From positions 17-64,016 of the forward strand of contig PBIO01000025.1 of assembly GCA_002720865.1 (NCBI GenBank): a stretch of DNA of 64,000 nucleotides. Direction: 5' to 3'. Shown here piece after piece: positions 1,206 through 9,996 of the stretch. Numbering within the stretch: position 1 is the first letter of the stretch; each line of letters starts with the position of its first letter. Made by a program: the position numbers and the translations under genes. This stretch comes from Halobacteriovorax sp. (GTDB lineage Bacteria; Bdellovibrionota; Bacteriovoracia; Bacteriovoracales; Bacteriovoracaceae). A model generated the notes under the pieces. That model saw only the letters and a program-made list of their open reading frames with translations, had not been told where the DNA came from and did not search any database.

Positions 1206-2513
1206 TCACAGAATGTTTGCAGCTAATGTAGCAATATCTGATCTTTGTCCGCGCGTGAGTTGAATATGCCCGGCAAAGGGAGTAGATTTAAATTTCTCAG
1301 CAACAATCGTTAGGCCGTTTGAGCTAGTATCAATATAGGGTGTATCAACTTGATCAATGTCACCTAATAGGACAATCTTTGAACCTTTACCAACTCTAGT
1401 AATGATTGTTTTTAATTCATGGATAGTTGTATTTTGTGCCTCATCAACGATAACAAACGCATCATTAAATGTTCTACCTCTAATGTAAGATAAAGGTGCA
1501 ATATCAATTTTCCCTTTCTCTCTCATAATTTCAAAATATGTCATATCCCCAAATGCATGCCTAAAGTTGTCCATAATAGGAGCTAACCATGGTGACATTT
1601 TATCTTGCATATCCCCAGGTAAATACCCAAGGTCACGACCAACCGGTTGTATCGATCGTGTAAAAATAATTTGCTTATAGTTTTCCTTTGATAAATGAGC
1701 CATTGCAGCCATAAGAGTCAAAAATGTTTTTCCAGATCCTGCTAACCCAGTGATGCTAACCAATTGAATAGCTGGATCTTGTAGCATATGAAGAGCAAAT
1801 CTTTGCTCTTTATTTCTAGGCTCAATTCCAGCTGTTTTAGCAAACTCGCCATTAGTCAATTGTTTAACTATATCACCATTAACAATCCCCAATATAGATC
1901 CATTTGCAGGACCTTTACCAACAACAAACTGGTTTTCATGTAGTTCTTCATCTACAATAATTCGTTCTTTTGAAATTTTAGACTTCTTATAAAATAAGTC
2001 AATGTCTTTTTCCGCTAAATGAATTTCAGCTTGGCCTGTGTAAATATTTGATTTGTCAACATCAATATGATCTCTATAATAGTCCTCTGCAATAAGGCCT
2101 AAGGCATCGCACTTAACCCGGAGGTTAATATCCTTAGTAATTACTTTGACGACCTCCTCGGCATGTCCCCTGGCCAGGAATAATGCTGTTGCAAGGATCT
2201 TGTTGTCTGCATATCTTGCGCTTAGGCCGGGTGGGATTGGTGCCTCTCCGTCTAGCTCAATTTCAACTCGAATAGTCTGATCAGAGTCTGGTATTTCAAC
2301 TGCAGTATCTAATCCACCATTTGCGCGCAATTTATCTAGATATCGATTAACATATCTAGCTGATTCTCCTAACAATCCAGGTTTATCTTTAAAGCGGTCT
2401 AGCTCATCAAGAACAGTTAGAGGAATAACAATATCATTTCCTGGAAAGGAATGAATGGCTGTCATATCATATAACAAAACCGACGTGTCTAAAACTAATA
2501 TTTTTCTTGACAT
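1206..2513 (-). CDS. phoH: PIN-domain PhoH-like ATPase (YlaK-type architecture)
   Basis: N-terminal PIN-like KILVLDTSVLLYD, Walker A GLAGSGKTFL, PhoH-type C-terminal ATPase region, 435 aa. Confidence 0.9.
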   Translation of the reverse strand: MSRKILVLDTSVLLYDMTAIHSFPGNDIVIPLTVLDELDRFKDKPGLLGESARYVNRYLDKLRANGGLDTAVEIPDSDQTIRVEIELDGEAPIPPGLSARYADNKILATALFLARGHAEEVVKVITKDINLRVKCDALGLIAEDYYRDHIDVDKSNIYTGQAEIHLAEKDIDLFYKKSKISKERIIVDEELHENQFVVGKGPANGSILGIVNGDIVKQLTNGEFAKTAGIEPRNKEQRFALHMLQDPAIQLVSITGLAGSGKTFLTLMAAMAHLSKENYKQIIFTRSIQPVGRDLGYLPGDMQDKMSPWLAPIMDNFRHAFGDMTYFEIMREKGKIDIAPLSYIRGRTFNDAFVIVDEAQNTTIHELKTIITRVGKGSKIVLLGDIDQVDTPYIDTSSNGLTIVAEKFKSTPFAGHIQLTRGQRSDIATLAANIL

Positions 2514-2641
2514 TTATTCCAATTCGAAATCAAATAATTTACTCAACGTGTCCAATTCAATTCATAATGTTATTATTGTCATAAGTTAAATATTGTTGTT
2601 GATCGGGTTTCTAGGAGAATTCGGTATGGAGTAGGGAAAAA

Positions 2642-2920
2642 ATGAATGGCGATAATGATAAAGATGGCATAATACCAAATAGTACATGCCATGGTGAACA
2701 TGAAAGATATGAAATAAAATGTGAAAAAAAGTCGTGCAAATATTGGCACGACTTACCCGACAGTCAGAATTGTATCATGATAGCTGCACGTAATGGGGAA
2801 CATACGCTACAACAAATAGGAGACATCTTTGGTGTCACAAGAATGAGAATATGCCAAATTGAAAAAATAATCTTTAAAAAGCTTTTAAAAAGATCTGATA
2901 TTCATTCAACCGTTGACTAG
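2642..2920 (+). CDS. small protein with sigma-70 region-4-like HTH
   Basis: C-terminal EHTLQQIGDIFGVTRMRICQIEKIIFKKLLKR fits the sigma region 4 pattern; Cys/His-rich N-terminus; only + strand gene in the first 18 kb. Confidence 0.55.
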   Translation: MNGDNDKDGIIPNSTCHGEHERYEIKCEKKSCKYWHDLPDSQNCIMIAARNGEHTLQQIGDIFGVTRMRICQIEKIIFKKLLKRSDIHSTVD

Positions 2921-4128
2921 TTTTTCATCCCACCAAACATTGTTATTGCAATTAATCCAGGAATTGAATCCTTAATATAGATTCCGGAAAACAATGTGTT
3001 TGCTCTTCCACCAACATATGCCGTAGCAGCCTCGAGCCGCTTACTAATATCCGGATCCGAAGCCATTAAAGAGGTTGCTAGCAACAATAGCACACCGGTC
3101 TCAGGTCCTTGTGTGGGGGCCGGACATGGTGACCCCTTAATGGAACCTTGGAGGAGAGTAGAGCCTATGTCACGCCCTCCTGTGTCCTTAACCACAGTAC
3201 TACCTAAAAAGATTCTTCCTGGAGTCTTAAGACATTTTTCTAAATCATTCGAATCAAATGCAGAAATAGATGAACTTTCATTAGCTAGTTTAAGGACCTG
3301 ATGTAATAGTTTTGCAAAAGAGTTATTTGCAGCAGGGTACATATTCAACAGGCCTACTTTACCCCTAAGTAATTGTAGTTGTCTTTCATTATCAATTATA
3401 ATATGAGGATTACCGGTAACATCATTAAGTGCAGTTGTGTAATTATTTTCAATTGTTGGGTTTAAAAGCTCTTGTGCAGTAGGCTTAGTAACAACATATA
3501 TAACACCACCCCCGGCCTCTATGGACTTAAGATACCTAGCTAGTGCATGAGTAAGGATAGAACTAGCAGATCCAGTACCACCTCCGCCACCAGCCAGAAC
3601 AAATACCCAATCGACATCATTACCGAGCCGGCTTCTACATGCATCTTCAACTAATGCACTATTTTCTTGAAGCAGCTTCTTTCCTAGTTCAATATCTTTT
3701 CCAACACCGTCTGATCCGGGGATTAAAACTACGTGATTTGAATCTACCCCATCCGGAAGATCTTTTTCCGTGGTATTAACAATTAATGTTTTATTAAACC
3801 CTAGATCTAAAAAAGCTTTTGCCAATTTTCCGCCGGCACCGCCGACACCGATAAAGGCACACTTTAATGCACTAGTAGCTGTATTCTCGGGTAATAGTCT
3901 ATCATCCTGGACAACTTCATCATCCATTCCTCCAACAAATCCCCAATCATCAACATCATTGATGTATGTATCGTCTGTCGTTTGGTCGGTATCTTTAGTA
4001 CTCATATTTTTTTCCTCTAAGGTTTCATCTTTTTGTTCATCGGCCTTTTTATAGGTAGGTTGTTTAAGATTGTTATTATTAACCTTTTTCCTAACTTTTG
4101 TAAACGCGGCCTTAATGCTACTAGCCAT
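2917..4128 (-). CDS. FtsZ/tubulin-superfamily GTPase (phage tubulin-like)
   Basis: GVGGAGGK G-box, GGGGGTGSA tubulin signature, IIIDNERQLQLL resembling the FtsZ T7 region; acidic ~90-aa N-terminal extension; GGAG RBS. Confidence 0.85.
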   Translation of the reverse strand: MASSIKAAFTKVRKKVNNNNLKQPTYKKADEQKDETLEEKNMSTKDTDQTTDDTYINDVDDWGFVGGMDDEVVQDDRLLPENTATSALKCAFIGVGGAGGKLAKAFLDLGFNKTLIVNTTEKDLPDGVDSNHVVLIPGSDGVGKDIELGKKLLQENSALVEDACRSRLGNDVDWVFVLAGGGGGTGSASSILTHALARYLKSIEAGGGVIYVVTKPTAQELLNPTIENNYTTALNDVTGNPHIIIDNERQLQLLRGKVGLLNMYPAANNSFAKLLHQVLKLANESSSISAFDSNDLEKCLKTPGRIFLGSTVVKDTGGRDIGSTLLQGSIKGSPCPAPTQGPETGVLLLLATSLMASDPDISKRLEAATAYVGGRANTLFSGIYIKDSIPGLIAITMFGGMKN

Positions 4129-4142
4129 GGTTTAACTCCGAA

Positions 4143-4505
4143 TGGTGGAGACGGCGGGAGTCGAACCCGCGTCCGAAACAAATCTAATATCAAGTCATTC
4201 ACAAGTTTAGTTAATTTCTCTAAATCAACAAAGTATCCACAAATTTTCCCACTTCCTATGTAGCCTCGGAAGTCCACCCATTACAAATGGGGTATCCATT
4301 GTGGTCTTGTTTATTTCGGTGGGACCAACCACTTATCCTAAATTGGTTAGATGGCTTTAGGAAGCCACCCGATTATGCCGCTAGGGCGTATTCGAAATTA
4401 TCGTTGTTATTTGCAACTATATTTTGTAACGCTATCAAACCATGTGTTACCGCTGGTTACTTGCACTCTCAACCTTCATTACTCCGTCGAGACCATTTCG
4501 TCCCC
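4143..4505 (-). ncRNA. ssrA: tmRNA (one-piece, 363 nt)
   Basis: 5' GGGGACGAAATGGTCTCGACGG and 3' GGACGCGGGTTCGACTCCCGCCGTCTCCACCA; 7-bp acceptor stem with G3-U70; internal tag ORF ending ALAA-TAA. Confidence 0.92.
4373..4414 (-). other. tmRNA tag reading frame ANNNDNFEYALAA-stop
   Basis: GCA AAT AAC AAC GAT AAT TTC GAA TAC GCC CTA GCG GCA TAA on the minus strand. Confidence 0.85.
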
Positions 4506-4510
4506 GTAGA

Positions 4511-4711
4511 CTACTTAGCTCCCTTTCGAGTTTTTTCCTCCTCGATTGTTAGTTTAACTAATTCTGCAGCTGAAGTCTTAAGAAGCCGCAATCCTCGGCG
4601 TGCACGTACACCCGCCGAATTGTTTCCATTGGCATTCTTAAGTACGTCAAGATCTAAACTCTCAACCAATACTTTAACTTCACTCCATTTATCAACAATT
4701 TTACTAGACAT
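4511..4711 (-). CDS. Hc1-like histone-like basic protein (tentative)
   Basis: 66 aa; LKNANGNNSAGVRARRGLRLLKTSAAELVK resembles the chlamydial Hc1 pattern KGNKAAAQRVR; GAGGAAAAAA RBS. Confidence 0.5.
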   Translation of the reverse strand: MSSKIVDKWSEVKVLVESLDLDVLKNANGNNSAGVRARRGLRLLKTSAAELVKLTIEEEKTRKGAK

Positions 4712-4721
4712 AATTTTTTCC

Positions 4722-4985
4722 TCACTCTGTTGTCAATATGTTGCTTTTCGAAGACTTTACGTCATCACTTATATTATCTATTGAATCTAAAAACTGTTTA
4801 ACACACTCAGATATTTTAATCATCGATTCCCTATCTTCTAGCTCAAGAGATAATAAATATGCTATTCGCAAAATTTGTTGCTGCGACACACCATACAACA
4901 ATATTGTTTGTGTAATCTCCCTAGCAACAGCATTATCTTCTATTTGTTTTTCTGTAGATGACTTTCCGTATGTTTGTGCACTCAT
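4722..4985 (-). CDS. hypothetical protein
   Basis: 87-aa ORF packed between neighbours. Confidence 0.55.
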   Translation of the reverse strand: MSAQTYGKSSTEKQIEDNAVAREITQTILLYGVSQQQILRIAYLLSLELEDRESMIKISECVKQFLDSIDNISDDVKSSKSNILTTE

Positions 4986-5470
4986 TACAATGTCTCTCCT
5001 ATAAATGTACTATATGAAAACGATTCAATTTTAGCCGTATCGGGCCCCTCTAGAACTAACATTTTTCCATGAATTTCGTCTTCCATCTGATCCCGAGTTA
5101 ATACAATCGATTGTCCCCATTTTTTATTTTCTAGAAAAAATCGTGTATATTCCCACGTCGCTAAATCGACTTTATAGCTCTCTAAAATATCTCTTATGTC
5201 TCGTGGTATAGCAATTTTTATATCATCTACAGTCGTTATCGATCTAAGTTCATCTCTACCAGAAATAATTTCTGATCTACATATATCAATAATCTTGTGT
5301 ATTACTCCACAATTATTACACTGTGCATATTTTGGTTCTACGGTACCGCTATCATCAATAACTGAGAATACTACGAACTTATGCCAAGGCCGTTCAGGCT
5401 TATTTTTATATTGTGGTAATACACAATGACACTCAACGGTGTGCTTAAGTCCATCCATCTCATAACTCAT
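4985..5470 (-). CDS. hypothetical protein with CxC...CxxC zinc-ribbon-like motif
   Basis: ECHC...CNNC cysteine pairs; 161 aa. Confidence 0.6.
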   Translation of the reverse strand: MSYEMDGLKHTVECHCVLPQYKNKPERPWHKFVVFSVIDDSGTVEPKYAQCNNCGVIHKIIDICRSEIISGRDELRSITTVDDIKIAIPRDIRDILESYKVDLATWEYTRFFLENKKWGQSIVLTRDQMEDEIHGKMLVLEGPDTAKIESFSYSTFIGETL

Positions 5471-5688
5471 TCAGTATTATTTTGAATTTCATTGGATACA
5501 CGTGTGTAGGTTCGATCTGCCATGGTAGTTAGGGATCTATTGACAATTTGTGATAACAACTTAAATTGTTCATCGCTTAAAGAAAGTGCCCCTACTGTTC
5601 TTGCCTCAAGTAAATCAGCGGCTACAGAATTTTTAACTAGCTCTACCATGTCATATATGCATCGATTAACATCTGTTTCTAGACTCAT
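5467..5688 (-). CDS. hypothetical protein
   Basis: 73-aa ORF, ATGA overlap with downstream gene. Confidence 0.55.
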   Translation of the reverse strand: MSLETDVNRCIYDMVELVKNSVAADLLEARTVGALSLSDEQFKLLSQIVNRSLTTMADRTYTRVSNEIQNNTE

Positions 5689-5759
5689 AATTTTCTCCTT
5701 TAATGATCATGATCATAACCAACAATATTAGTTATTCATTAAAAAGTAAACTTTTTGAT

Positions 5760-6230
5760 TTATTTTGCATGCTTATCTGCGACAAAGGCAGCCCAGGAAT
5801 CAGGCTTAACTATACACTTATACCCCATTGATAAAACAAAGTTCTTTAAAGCCTTAAGGTGCTTCGAACTTTTATGACGGGGATCCGGATTAAGATCAGC
5901 ATGTACTGTAATATCTCTGCTTATAAGATTTGCTTTAAGCATTTCTGCTATTGATATTGACAAATCAGTTTCTCTTTGAAGCCTATATCCCAATGCATTA
6001 TACTTCTTTAAAGATTCCTTGTGCCGACTTACATAATACGTCCCACCATTTCCTGGAACATATAAACATATGACAGTCGCAAATACATACACATCTTTAA
6101 CTTGTTGAGAATCTGTGCCTACATGAATTTCGAAATCTAAATTACCCAGAATATGTTTAACAATTTCTTTATATTCTACATTGATTCCTGATCCGTTAAT
6201 CCATATATTCTTTTGCCATTCATCAACCAC
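5760..6230 (-). CDS. YkuK/DUF458-like RNase H-fold protein (tentative)
   Basis: IHVGTDSQ motif and ~155-aa size recall the YkuK family. Confidence 0.5.
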   Translation of the reverse strand: MVDEWQKNIWINGSGINVEYKEIVKHILGNLDFEIHVGTDSQQVKDVYVFATVICLYVPGNGGTYYVSRHKESLKKYNALGYRLQRETDLSISIAEMLKANLISRDITVHADLNPDPRHKSSKHLKALKNFVLSMGYKCIVKPDSWAAFVADKHAK

Positions 6231-6250
6231 TAGAAGTATTACCTTTTCTA

Positions 6251-7654
6251 TTACGTTTCTTGATCAAGAACTAAAAATGCGCCGGTATTATTAATACTAC
6301 TTGCAGCATAGAAACCACCCATAATTCCATGAACCAAACTTAAAGCAGGCATATCAATAAATCCTAAACCTTGTAATTCGTTCATTATATCATTAAGTAT
6401 TTTTGTAACAAAGATGGATCCAGTCATTTTTTTTAAATCAGGTATATGAATAATGCCAGACCTATTAACCGTTGATAATATTCCTATTCCCGTTCCTGCT
6501 CTTTCTAACGTTAGGGGCAATATATCATTATAATCATGACCAAAAGAAACGCGAGTGCAGATAGATGTTAGGACCTTTATTCTATCATCAATTAATCTAG
6601 ACTTTTCTAAGACATGAGATTCTTTTTTTTGTTCACTTAATTGTGCAATATGCTTTTGAACATTACGGTACGTATTTTCATTTTGTATTACAACAGTACT
6701 TTCGTCAATATCAACTCGGGGAACAGTAACTATTTCATCAATATTAATTGATGAAATTAATTCTCCCTTAAGGGAAGATACGACATCTGTGCCACATATT
6801 ACTGCTATATCTTTTAATAAATTTGACCCAAATAAATCATAAGGAATGACAACAGGAATAATGTCCAATGACTGCCTTTTAAAGTTTAAGCCTAAGGTAG
6901 CTGTAACTTCTTCAGAACAACCTCTACAGAAAATAACTCCAGGCTCTTTTGTTTCTGATAATGTGCTTAAAATATGATGTACCTCAGAGACAGATTCTAG
7001 GATGCCATCAATAACAAAGCATTTAACATTTGATCTTTTCCATCTACTTACTTTTGTTGGTACCCAAAATTCCCGTAATGGTGTAACTGGAACCCTGTAG
7101 CCCCTGTATGTCTCTATTACGGTATCATCTTTTGACAATGGATCTAGATATATTTGTCCATTATGACCACTTAATCTTGCAGCTGTAAAAATAATTTTTG
7201 AAATAATAGGATTTGAAATATAGTTTTCTAAAATCTTTCTACTATTGTTTATTGTTGTTATTCTTGAAAACCTAGATAGCTCACTGATAATATCTTCAAA
7301 CTCATTTAAATCTAACCTATGATTAAATGCTTTAAGCTTAAGGACCTCTTCAAGAACGTATAAGAATGTAATGCAGTTGACAATAGAGCTTCCTGGTGCG
7401 GCCTTCTCGTAGTCTATAAGAGACTCTAAGAGTATATTTCGTACAGTTAGCCTTATTGAATCGCTACAATGGCGATTAATTATAATTTTCTTAATATCAA
7501 TAGCAGAAAACGCTACATAGCGATCATTAGATACATACCCTAATTTCGATGCTGCTAATAATTTTAAGTCTTTTTTAAGCTCGCCTATATAGTCAACTAT
7601 GGTTGATGTTGAGTCATTATATGCTATAAGCTCCGAATAATTTTCTAAGGTCAT
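6251..7654 (-). CDS. divergent chaperonin (Cpn60/GroEL-like) protein
   Basis: [27 protein letters not shown] aligns by eye to GroEL [34 protein letters not shown] sits where GDGTTTA would be. Confidence 0.45.
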   Translation of the reverse strand: [467 protein letters not shown]

Positions 7655-7665
7655 GATTCAACATA

Positions 7666-7998
7666 TTAATGAGGTGTTTTCTTGTTACCCGTAAGTGCCC
7701 CAAAATCAAATAACTTTGAGTATGATTCAACTAGCTGTTCATTTAGCAAAGATGCATCTGATGACTTACTGCCTTGAATACCTGAGGAAATCGATTTAAT
7801 TGCATCTGCCATAGCTTCTGCAGTGGCTTTCTGTTGCTGCATTTCGATTGCATATCTACAAAATACACCAAAAATTGATAATCCTAAAAATATGCTGCCT
7901 AACCATAAACTAGGGTTTGTAACAAATAAAACAACAGAACCAACTAAACTAAGTTCGCTCCATTGAATTGATACTTGATTTTTCATATAAAACTCCAT
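7666..7998 (-). CDS. membrane protein
   Basis: two hydrophobic helices (LVGSVVLFV..., IFLGLSIFGVF). Confidence 0.55.
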   Translation of the reverse strand: MEFYMKNQVSIQWSELSLVGSVVLFVTNPSLWLGSIFLGLSIFGVFCRYAIEMQQQKATAEAMADAIKSISSGIQGSKSSDASLLNEQLVESYSKLFDFGALTGNKKTPH

Positions 7999-8067
7999 CC
8001 CATAAGTAAAGTACTTAATACAATATTACATACATGGACTTAAAAGTATAGTTCGGTTTACTTAGTT

Positions 8068-9996
8068 CTAGCCGTCGCGCCAAAGATTGTTGCTAGCATA
8101 CCTTAAGATCTCTTCTGCAGAGTCTTCACTATAACCATATTCTTCAATCATAGTACTAACCATGTCACCATATCGTTTTTGCTGGTCGTCATCCCTAGTC
8201 TTACTCTTGGTAACAATCCGGGCCATATCTTTGACAGATGTAATTAGATAACCCTCAATAGCTTCTTTGAGAGGTTCATAACTTCTATAATCTACTATAT
8301 CGCCGCGTCTCATTCTTGCGAACATATACGCAGTAACATCACTCCTGAAGCCGTCCCTGCTGGAACCAATGATGCCGATTTGTTCTTCAATCGATCTCAT
8401 AAACTCCTCATCGGGCTCTCGCTCTTCTTTAGTGATTCCGTCCTTTACACGTTGGCGTGTTGTAAATGCTTCAGCATTATCAAGGTATGTATCAAAAAGA
8501 GCTTGAGCTTGTTCTTCGTATGCGGTGACAAATGCTTTTGCAATTTCTGTCTCTAGTATTTTTAGATACTCTTCTCTTACACCCTGTAGGATTTCTAAGC
8601 AACTATCTTTAAAATCTTCCCGAATAATCTGATCTTTGACTTGTCGGGTTAGAGATTTTAGAATTGAAACAGGGGTAATCATACTCTTTTCAGCGTCAGA
8701 TAAAGCATTATCAATTGATTTCATAATAAATCTTGTTGAGATTCCTTCCATCCCTTCCCGGGGGGCAGCCTCATCTTTAAGATCTTTGATATCAATTTTC
8801 TTGACCCTACCTTTTTCTATAACATCTTCACCGTTATAGATTTTCATCTTCGTTAAGATGTCACACTTTGCAGATGCTTTAAGCCTAGATAAAACTGAAA
8901 ACATTGAGGCAACCTTTAATGTATGAGGTGCGATGTGTGCTTTGAAATCAGATCTAGATAAAAGCTTTTCATAGATTTTAATCTCTTGATCAAGCTCTAA
9001 AACATATGGTACATTAATCTTAACAATTCTATCTAAGATTGCCTCGTTGGTATGTTCTGCCCGAAACCTATTCCACTCTGCTTCGTTGCAGTGCGCAAGA
9101 ATAACTCCATCAAAATGAATCATAGCATTTTTTCCTGGAGACGGAATCCTTTTTTCCTGCGTTGCTGTAATTACAGTATGAAGAAATTCAATTTCATTTT
9201 TAAAAACCTCAATAAGCTCCACAATGCCTCTATTACCCACATTAAATGCACCATTCAATGACAGTACTCGTGGATCATCTTCAGGAAATAAATCTAACTT
9301 AGATATATCCTCTGACCCAATAAGTACTGAAACATCTTGGCTGTTTGCATCCATCGGTGGGACGGAAGCAATCCCCCTTCGGGCCCGTGCTGAGAACGTT
9401 CTTTCAACAACAGGAAAATTTTCATACTGGCCATCATGATCTTCAAGCAGTTTGTGGCGGGCCACTGGACTTAGATCTCCTTCAATCTTAACCTTTAAAA
9501 TCTTTTCAAATTCTTTTCGCAACCCGCGCGGAACCAAATGCAATGGCTCACCACATTGAGGATCACCTTCAAGGCAATAGTATTTCTCTCCCTCTAGGGC
9601 AGCCTTAATATGTTCTGTTAGCGCAGACTTACCGGCCCCAACCGGTCCCATAAGTAATAGAATTTGCCGGCTCTCTTCACCTTTAAGTGAGGCAGACTTG
9701 AGGAACCGCATAAGTTTTGCGATTACTCTTTCCATTCCAAAAAATTCTGAGTCGAAATAGTCATATACCTGAATATTCTCCCCATCAAACAGCTTATGGT
9801 TCCTAGATATATCTGACATAACACCAGAACCTTTATTCGCGATGGCATCATAAAGACGCTTATGAGCCAACCTTATAATATCTGGATTCTTTTGAACTAA
9901 ATCCAGATACTCTAGAAAAGTCCCTCTAAACTTTTCTTCCTGATTCGTATCTCGTTGTTTCTGAATCAGATTCAAAAATTTCTTTTTATCGGTCAT
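8068..9996 (-). CDS. prkA: PrkA/YeaG-family AAA+ serine protein kinase
   Basis: 642 aa; QILLLMGPVGAGKSAL Walker A in PrkA-like context; adjacent to SpoVR and YeaH homologues. Confidence 0.9.
   Translation of the reverse strand: MTDKKKFLNLIQKQRDTNQEEKFRGTFLEYLDLVQKNPDIIRLAHKRLYDAIANKGSGVMSDISRNHKLFDGENIQVYDYFDSEFFGMERVIAKLMRFLKSASLKGEESRQILLLMGPVGAGKSALTEHIKAALEGEKYYCLEGDPQCGEPLHLVPRGLRKEFEKILKVKIEGDLSPVARHKLLEDHDGQYENFPVVERTFSARARRGIASVPPMDANSQDVSVLIGSEDISKLDLFPEDDPRVLSLNGAFNVGNRGIVELIEVFKNEIEFLHTVITATQEKRIPSPGKNAMIHFDGVILAHCNEAEWNRFRAEHTNEAILDRIVKINVPYVLELDQEIKIYEKLLSRSDFKAHIAPHTLKVASMFSVLSRLKASAKCDILTKMKIYNGEDVIEKGRVKKIDIKDLKDEAAPREGMEGISTRFIMKSIDNALSDAEKSMITPVSILKSLTRQVKDQIIREDFKDSCLEILQGVREEYLKILETEIAKAFVTAYEEQAQALFDTYLDNAEAFTTRQRVKDGITKEEREPDEEFMRSIEEQIGIIGSSRDGFRSDVTAYMFARMRRGDIVDYRSYEPLKEAIEGYLITSVKDMARIVTKSKTRDDDQQKRYGDMVSTMIEEYGYSEDSAEEILRYASNNLWRDG

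Follow-up and report, generated by a model that had tools for sequence, protein, structure and literature searches.

A one-piece tmRNA gene between protein genes of a probable marine T4-like jumbo phage

What is a complete transfer-messenger RNA (tmRNA) gene doing between two closely packed protein genes, in DNA deposited as part of a bacterial assembly? The question is raised by a 64,000-nucleotide stretch (the window) of Halobacteriovorax sp. contig PBIO01000025.1, which carries a 363 nt gene at positions 4143..4505 of the minus strand. An earlier note on this DNA took the gene for a complete one-piece tmRNA encoded by a phage. We conclude, with a probability of roughly 0.8, that it is a functional one-piece ssrA gene of an uncultured marine T4-like jumbo phage, the RNA of which would be excised from a polycistronic transcript and would rescue ribosomes together with host factors. 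The gene is phage-encoded, and is neither a host ssrA gene nor the remnant of an attachment (att) site. Judged by sequence comparison, the RNA is under selection as a tmRNA, for its structure as well as for its tag coding frame, and everything that a one-piece tmRNA requires in sequence and structure is present and conserved, with the exception of the knot topology of the pseudoknot 4 (PK4) region.

The tmRNA gene and its conservation

The tmRNA was the sole RNA gene that ARAGORN found in the window, at 4143..4505 (-), with its coding part at gene positions 92-133 and the tag ANNNDNFEYALAA*. The Rfam model RF00023 matched at identical coordinates, 4143-4505, end to end over model positions 1-374, with a score of 117.3 bits against a gathering score of 47 (E = 3.4e-45). 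The earlier note had suggested both searches; they agree to the base with each other and with the complete gene that it claimed, and the score is above threshold over the full model. The RF00023 match is that of a collinear one-piece molecule, and ARAGORN flagged no permuted form.

The 5′ end (GGGGACGAAATGGTCTCGACGG) and the T-arm and 3′ end (GGACGCGGGTTCGACTCCCGCCGTCTCCACCA) quoted in the note are both present in the sequence. The acceptor stem is formed by GGGGACG (4499..4505) and CGTCTCC (4147-4153), which pair at 7 of 7 positions and include G3.U357, the equivalent of G3.U70; the 7 bp stem with this alanine identity pair had been recognised previously. The T-arm GCGGG TTCGACT CCCGC (stem paired 5/5), the 3′ strand of the acceptor stem, the discriminator A and the encoded CCA together occupy 4143..4170. 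The 5′ strand of helix 2 (H2a-c, 18 pairs) lies at 4459..4486 and pairs with 4174-4206. Pseudoknot 1 (PK1; AACCA/TGGTT and GTAAC/GTTAC) extends over 4426..4458 and is followed by the tag frame at 4373..4414. This frame, which the note had also picked out, runs from the resume codon GCA to GCG GCA TAA, and its 13 codons and stop specify ANNNDNFEYALAA, whose ending ...YALAA is a degron of the ClpXP type. A small helix 5 (GCC/GGC, 4377-4387) falls within the tag-frame interval. Beyond it are pseudoknot 2 (PK2; GGC/GCC and TCCTAAA/TTTAGGA, 4336..4366) and pseudoknot 3 (PK3; GTGG/CCAC and TGGTC/GACCA, 4302..4332). The PK4 region (4210..4272), the most variable segment, contains two hairpins, CTTCC/GGAAG at 4252-4272 and a terminal hairpin GTTGATTT/AAATTAAC at 4210-4229. 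All of these elements are on the minus strand. Four mechanical open reading frames (ORFs) of at least 50 aa overlap the gene; they were rightly regarded as artefacts in the note, which had counted three. The tmRNA interval is without any called gene on three independently assembled contigs carrying the identical locus.

Deposited phages gave no match either in a megablast search with the locus or in a tblastn search with the tubulin-like protein encoded downstream of the tmRNA, and the latter protein, used alone as a query, had no match in IMG/VR. The tmRNA 3′ end gave access to relatives, as did, later, the histone H1-like (Hc1-like) protein encoded upstream, a search with which is independent of the tmRNA. 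The exact 32 nt 3′ end occurred in 28 IMG/VR contigs, 24 of which contained complete tmRNAs with related tags; the first comparison set comprised 21 unique tmRNA sequences, including that of the window. The Hc1-like protein led to 16 viral loci, and a tmRNA was present in 12 of 15 loci found by way of its gene. The whole family amounts to about 100 viral contigs in two branches.

RNAalifold predicted 62 pairs for the 21 unique sequences, 23 of them with compensatory changes. A hand-defined structure of 43 pairs, with PK2 pseudoknotted, was 97.4% paired, compared with 36-49% when the partners were slid, and double-sided changes were found in 11 pairs compared with 0-2. None of 500 shuffles reached the observed values for percentage paired, covariation score or double-sided changes; further pair types were no more numerous than in the shuffles. 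PK1 was left out of this count because MAFFT misaligned it between subgroups, and was examined in a subgroup alignment instead. Since the search pattern had fixed the 3′ end of the first set, the test was redone on the subgroup derived from the Hc1-like protein, using an architecture of 75 pairs in 15 helices (acceptor, H2a-c, both PK1 stems, helix 5, PK2, PK3, the PK4-region hairpin, the terminal hairpin and the T-arm). This structure was 92.4% paired, compared with 36-48% for slid partners, and 35 pairs were altered on both sides compared with 4-19; again 0 of 500 shuffles reached the observed values.

The changes are spread over the molecule. G3.U is invariant in 21/21 and 11/11 relatives while the neighbouring pairs covary (A-U to G-C, C-G to U-A), and in the subgroup the T-stem changes from GCGGG/CCCGC to CCGGG/CCCGG. 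Helices H2a-c are 93-100% paired across the relatives, with double-sided changes. Both stems of PK1 covary in the subgroup, the first occurring as ATCCA/TGGAT, AGCCA/TGGCT and GACCA/TGGTC, and the second as GTGAC/GTCAT and ATAAC/GTTAT. Covariation likewise backs helix 5, PK2 and PK3: the 7 bp arm of PK2 has eight sequence variants, each paired 7/7, its other stem GGC/GCC becomes GGT/ACC, and PK3 TGGTC/GACCA becomes TGATC/GATCA or TAATC/GATTA. The hairpins of the PK4 region covary also (ATCCT/AGGAT and TCCCA/TGGGA for the first; GTTGGTTT/AAACTAAC and GCTAGTTT/AAATTAGC for the terminal one). The tag pattern A-N-N-N-x-x-[F/Y]-[E/D]-...-L-A-A-stop is kept in the 21 unique relatives, with synonymous changes in its frame (GCA/GCC/GCT, AAT/AAC, CTA/CTC/TTA and GCG/GCA), and the A located four bases ahead of the resume codon never varies.

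Flanking genes, transcript and function

The gene upstream of the tmRNA (4511..4711, -) encodes a basic, Hc1-like protein of 66 aa (PF07432, 31.6 bits against a cut-off of 23.5), which is 57-79% identical across the 16 viral loci. In the window this ORF has its own stop codon and ends 5 nt before G1 of the tmRNA; in 11 loci the corresponding stop codon lies 3-15 nt before a tmRNA. On the other side, a 14 nt spacer (4129..4142) separates the CCA end from the ATG of the downstream gene at 4128, which agrees within one base with the 15 nt given in the earlier note, and contains GGAG at 4136-4139, a likely ribosome-binding site. The downstream gene (2917..4128, -) encodes a divergent GTPase of the FtsZ/tubulin superfamily, 403 aa long, with the signature GGGGGTGSAS. 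It scored 30.8 bits with Pfam Tubulin (E = 4.4e-7), slightly below the cut-off of 33, and matched FtsZ structures in the PDB with E = 8e-9 and TubZ and RepX more weakly.

This arrangement is conserved. The tubulin-like protein is encoded directly 3′ of the tmRNA in nine viral loci (62-73% identical), and nine IMG/VR loci keep the full order of Hc1-like gene, 3-15 nt, tmRNA and tubulin-like gene, with the tags ANNNDNYEYALAA, ANDNVEYDYALAA, ANDNVAYDYALAA, ANDNVEYNYALAA and ANTDTYNDYALAA. The stretch from PrkA to PhoH is collinear in the window and in L011, a relative of 56 kb; identity is 36-79% over the proteins that the two have in common and 54-79% for those encoded nearest the tmRNA. A 267 kb relative (78% complete) keeps the full module, and a 236 kb relative (87% complete) has the Hc1-like gene and the tmRNA, with the tubulin-like protein unmatched. 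Packing between ORFs is a property of the whole family, in all members of which the next ORF begins 1-38 nt after the CCA.

Promoter-like sites in the interval 2500-8200 were no commoner than in shuffled sequence, and none was found in the short spacers beside the tmRNA; terminator-like sites in this interval were somewhat above shuffles, yet none adjoins the tmRNA. Because spacers of 5 nt and 14 nt leave no room for a promoter or terminator, the tmRNA appears to have neither of its own and is probably excised from a polycistronic transcript.

Two further genes lie nearby. A 92-aa sigma-70 region-4-like protein (PF04545, 38 bits; 2642-2920, +) is encoded convergently between the tubulin-like and PhoH genes and is kept in L011 at 64% identity; a 9 bp terminator-like hairpin (2729-2754, -) lies inside the 5′ part of its gene. 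The PhoH protein (1206-2513, -) has a PIN (nuclease) domain at its N-terminus. In 12 more distant relatives a homologue of PhoH with 37-43% identity is encoded within a few kb of the tmRNA, and tRNA-Asn, Gly, Thr or Arg genes often lie between the two.

We propose that the tmRNA would be co-transcribed with the flanking Hc1-like and tubulin-like genes, that RNase P would free its 5′ end, and that endonucleases and exonucleases would trim its 3′ end to CCA, as for phage tRNAs. RNase P processing of the 5′ end, charging with alanine and binding of EF-Tu are known for tmRNA (PMC3985003). Charging would be carried out by the host alanyl-tRNA synthetase, and host SmpB and EF-Tu would bring the RNA to ribosomes stalled on truncated mRNAs; ANNNDNFEYALAA would then be added to the nascent chain, leading to degradation by host proteases of the ClpXP type. 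Compatibility with the host synthetase, SmpB and proteases is assumed at each of these steps. No SmpB was found on the phage contigs (described below) or in relatives, whether the three complete ones or those of 236-267 kb, and within the assembly it is encoded only on the bacterial contig C14. The likely benefit would be that ribosomes are kept available through a long infection, during which host transcription, and hence the supply of fresh host tmRNA, would probably be shut down, and mRNA decay or nuclease-type defences would generate non-stop messages. A similar role in ribosome availability has been proposed for other phage tmRNAs (PMC7162821, PMC9004378).

Two points weigh against a functional tmRNA of this kind. 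In the PK4 region, two covarying hairpins are present and no knot could be demonstrated, the posterior probability of the Rfam alignment being low there. In addition, two close relatives (L234 and L235; about 2689-2790) have neither a tmRNA nor any remnant of one, and only about 80 nt lie between their Hc1-like and tubulin-like genes. The tmRNA is therefore dispensable and its benefit perhaps conditional; as natural empty sites, these two loci mark it as a cassette that is gained or lost within a conserved context.

The tight packing could also mean that excision of the tmRNA serves as RNA processing, defining where the upstream message ends and where the downstream one begins and thereby tuning the Hc1-like and tubulin-like genes. 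The short spacers on both sides (upstream, 3-15 nt within the window's subgroup; downstream, 1-38 nt throughout the family) fit this idea, and further evidence comes from a sister branch outside the window (IMG/VR loci L145-L224 and L012-L036). There, a conserved protein of about 69 aa (MWKVYKWNGHYIxGDLISKHSSExAAL...IWLDxExGxPxGVIxKK) is encoded directly 5′ of the tmRNA. It was found independently in 80 loci, with a tmRNA called directly downstream in 70; in seven of the other ten the locus breaks off 189-521 nt beyond the start of the ORF, too early to accommodate a whole tmRNA gene. The core of the 69-aa protein ends exactly at base 1 of the tmRNA. At 39 of 51 unique junctions the ORF reaches the tmRNA without meeting a stop codon and continues into it for 8-41 nt, ending in one of five registers (-8, -10, -13, -27 and -40/-41), and in three of the 51 the stop abuts G1. 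An RNase P cut at G1 would thus deprive the 69-aa message of its stop codon and make it a built-in non-stop mRNA. The protein matched no Pfam family and has no copy in the assembly, and a confident AlphaFold2 model (predicted local distance difference test score, pLDDT, 91) gave no significant fold match in the PDB.

In the sister branch the processing idea would make the non-stop message, with its tagged product, a feedback on rescue capacity, and PMC10107115 provides a precedent for a regulatory non-stop mRNA in arfA. The window's branch lacks the non-stop feature because its Hc1-like ORF keeps its own stop codon; tight packing is usual in phage genomes; and the tmRNA-less relatives join the two genes by a plain spacer of about 80 nt. 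Processing would moreover complement the canonical function of the tmRNA and not replace it. As an explanation of the window's gene we consider it unlikely. That the tmRNA has a double duty in the lineage, rescuing ribosomes and also punctuating an mRNA from which it excises itself, is a somewhat less doubtful suggestion, albeit a tentative one that we would not expect to hold. If it did, the 69-aa product, tagged by the tmRNA that follows it, would give the phage a gauge of trans-translation capacity, comparable to bacterial arfA, while in the window's branch excision would do no more than define where the transcripts of the Hc1-like and tubulin-like genes end. The sister-branch arrangement is a lead in its own right, apart from the verdict on the tmRNA.

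Alternatively, the RNA could be a decoy that titrates host SmpB or competes with the host tmRNA, and so blocks host trans-translation with no rescue or tagging of its own. A phage without SmpB must indeed compete for that of its host, and the mycobacteriophage DS6A has little beyond the tRNA-like domain, a molecule that strongly inhibits tmRNA, perhaps by titrating SmpB (PMC4131195). For such a purpose the tRNA-like domain alone would suffice, yet the context of the resume codon, the tag frame, PK1, helix 5 and PK2-PK3 are all conserved, and we give the decoy little credence.

Phage origin and host

The window is part of C25, a contig of 101 kb in a bacterial assembly of 4.9 Mb and 33 contigs, and this origin, together with the classic use of tmRNA genes as integration sites, could suggest a chromosomal ssrA gene beside a prophage or island, or a host-derived att remnant. 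Many deposited temperate phages do match only the last ~36-40 nt of the window's tmRNA. The gene in the window is of full length. It has phage genes on both sides, window proteins matching phage families (PIN-PhoH, helicase, phage PrkA and HNH endonuclease) on either side of the tmRNA, and nine viral contigs retain the succession of Hc1-like gene, tmRNA and tubulin-like gene, which bears out the earlier statement that the gene is phage-encoded and not an att-site fragment. Thirteen contigs, assembled independently from several samples, have the identical tubulin-like protein and gene order.

Three full-length tmRNA genes are present in the assembly, on C14, C25 and C24, with a mean column identity among them of only 64%. 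The bacterium's own ssrA is that of the 1.4 Mb contig C14, 27 kb from the only smpB in the assembly, and specifies the tag ANNDFAPAMAA. Tetranucleotide profiles of the bacterial contigs correlate with r ~0.99-1.00; C25, C13, C16 and C6, together ~287 kb, form a group with r = 0.96-0.99, and C24, C4, C1 and C33 a second group. On C13 are genes for a T4-type gp23 capsid, a large terminase and a tail sheath, and C16 has six tRNAs. The closest capsids to that of C13, at most 42% identical, belong to uncultured huge phages, Microcystis phage Mel-JY01, Flavobacterium phage immuto, RM378 and XacN1. Genomes of the same genus are 3.3-4.0 Mb in size, 0.9-1.6 Mb smaller than the assembly, and lack the window's tmRNA, which was found in 0 of 60 relatives of the co-binned bacterium. 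None of the seven tyrosine integrases in the assembly is on C25, C13, C16 or C6. In relatives, a tmRNA of the family and a T4-type capsid gene share a contig: this is so for gp23 in the 267 kb and 236 kb relatives, and likewise for three CheckV-complete genomes (194-203 kb) of the more distant sister branch, one of which has terminal repeats.

The tetranucleotide groups, the phage genes of C13 and the smaller same-genus genomes without the tmRNA identify the assembly as a bacterial genome with several hundred kb of co-binned, mostly viral DNA, and C25, C13, C16 and C6 are probably the genome of one T4-like jumbo phage. The phage flanks, the conserved viral module, the occurrence of tmRNA and capsid gene on one contig in relatives and the separate bacterial ssrA together establish that the tmRNA is phage-encoded, and a host ssrA or att remnant is very improbable. 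A recently captured passenger gene without function for the phage, as its absence from some close relatives and the rarity of tmRNA in phages (about 2.3% of genomes; PMC9004378) might suggest, is hardly tenable, being contradicted by the covariation data, with compensatory and synonymous changes maintaining structure and tag, in a family that covers phages with PhoH only 37-43% identical, is present in 12/15 and 70/80 loci found through the Hc1-like and 69-aa proteins, and is distant from the bacterial tmRNAs examined (at most 76 bits against 249 for a family member).

For annotation, these findings remove four spurious ORFs and flag a nominally bacterial assembly for co-binned viral DNA, which includes a second foreign tmRNA. 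The latter (C24:30321-30739, +, equivalent to L001:1501-1919) is 419 nt long, scored 127.8 bits with RF00023 and was missed by ARAGORN. It has an insertion of ~60 nt in the tag region, and its frame, ending ...ALAA*, would give a long and very basic tag of about 30 aa (AKNRVRALGFKNRLAAKRFGFKSRKLALAA), which was not found in IMG/VR. C24, C4, C1 and C33 are virus-like (~177 kb), with a Terminase_6N match on C4 and a 3,079-aa repeat protein. Further outliers are C7, C15, C21-C23 and C29; C7 and C15 have a near-identical terminase.

The earlier note had thought that the tag might hint at the host lineage. We see no support for this: the tag of the co-binned bacterium differs from ANNNDNFEYALAA, tags ending in ...ALAA are spread over many phyla, and the tag gives no usable clue to the host. 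The 32 nt 3′ end was rejected as a lineage marker, being identical in scattered phyla. Binning is the only link to the co-binned bacterium, and a simple scan for a host link found no CRISPR array; in Melnitz, a cultured marine phage, the tmRNA type is unlike that of the host (PMC9004378). The bacterial tmRNAs used for comparison were a sample restricted to identical 3′ ends. Among 80 loci examined from the bacterial collection one was a family member, and this one is on a phage contig mis-binned into an archaeal metagenome-assembled genome (MAG). The contig (L094; CAZNKX010000014.1, 11 kb, from a 'Candidatus Woesearchaeota archaeon' MAG) carries a family tmRNA of 249 bits with the tag ANNNNNFESVRLAA and is almost certainly a mis-binned phage fragment. 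The closest bacterial tmRNAs were those of Natronospirillum and Salinispirillum (L066, L096 and L050), at 71-76 bits, too distant for either genus to be taken as donor or host. Their gammaproteobacterial ssrA genes specify 14-residue tags ending in ...RLAA (ANDDNFGAEMRLAA, ANDDTFGGEVRLAA), like the majority phage tag ANNNNHFESVRLAA.

Comparison with known tmRNA systems

That full tmRNA genes occur in a minority of large phages, as the earlier note stated, agrees with published work (PMC4131195, PMC7162821, PMC9004378). The locus is thus a well-supported new addition to the documented phage tmRNAs, of a kind already known, and since about 2.3% of phage genomes carry such genes its novelty is modest. 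We found no experimental test of phage tmRNA function in the literature searched. The family would be a good system in which to ask why a virulent phage brings a rescue RNA and how that RNA leaves a polycistronic transcript, because structure, tag and gene context can be compared across ~100 contigs in two branches.

With bacterial SsrA of the Escherichia coli type (RF00023), the window's tmRNA shares the full model match, the G3.U acceptor stem, the encoded CCA, the T-arm and helix 2, PK1 ahead of a GCA resume codon and, four bases before that codon, the conserved A, and a short tag ending YALAA and a stop, followed by PK2 and PK3, together with helix 5. It differs in being a phage gene with no smpB beside it or elsewhere in the phage, in having no promoter or terminator of its own and spacers of only 5 nt and 14 nt to protein genes, and in a PK4 region reduced to two hairpins with no demonstrable knot.

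Bxz1-group mycobacteriophages and Bacillus phage G also carry tmRNA genes (PMC4131195). Like the window's phage, such cultured large phages are virulent and without SmpB, and combine a complete one-piece tmRNA with a tag of the ...ALAA type. Sequence similarity to them is limited to the universal last ~40 nt, the only part over which the ~131-134 kb Streptomyces phages Elmer and Wofford match the window's tmRNA. The window's phage, in contrast, is marine and a deep-branching T4-like one, its tags belong to an ANNN.../ANDN...YALAA family, and its tmRNA lies between protein genes and not in a tRNA cluster. Among the huge metagenomic phages of PMC7162821, which also exceed 200 kb and carry translation-related genes including tmRNA, is the genome closest to the C13 capsid (LR756508, 38% identity); some of these phages encode SmpB as well, whereas none was found in the window's phage or its relatives.

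Melnitz and the pelagimyophages (PMC9004378) are likewise T4-like myophages from the sea. Many of them, though not all, have a complete ssrA, which shares an operon with protein genes, and the functional ideas put forward for it, maintenance of the hijacked translation machinery or protein tagging, apply equally to the window's gene. Their tmRNAs are circularly permuted two-piece molecules of the alphaproteobacterial type, some with a glutamine riboswitch, whereas that of the window is one-piece. In that survey ~2.3% of 18,146 phage genomes carried a tmRNA, those of marine phages were mostly of two-piece form, and only 2.5% of one-piece phage tmRNAs were marine (PMC9004378). The window's tmRNA belongs to a large but little-described family, the members of which are one-piece and occur in large and jumbo phages of the marine T4-like type. 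It shows one-piece tmRNAs to be common in a marine T4-like jumbo lineage, where earlier surveys of isolates had found mainly two-piece forms in marine phages.

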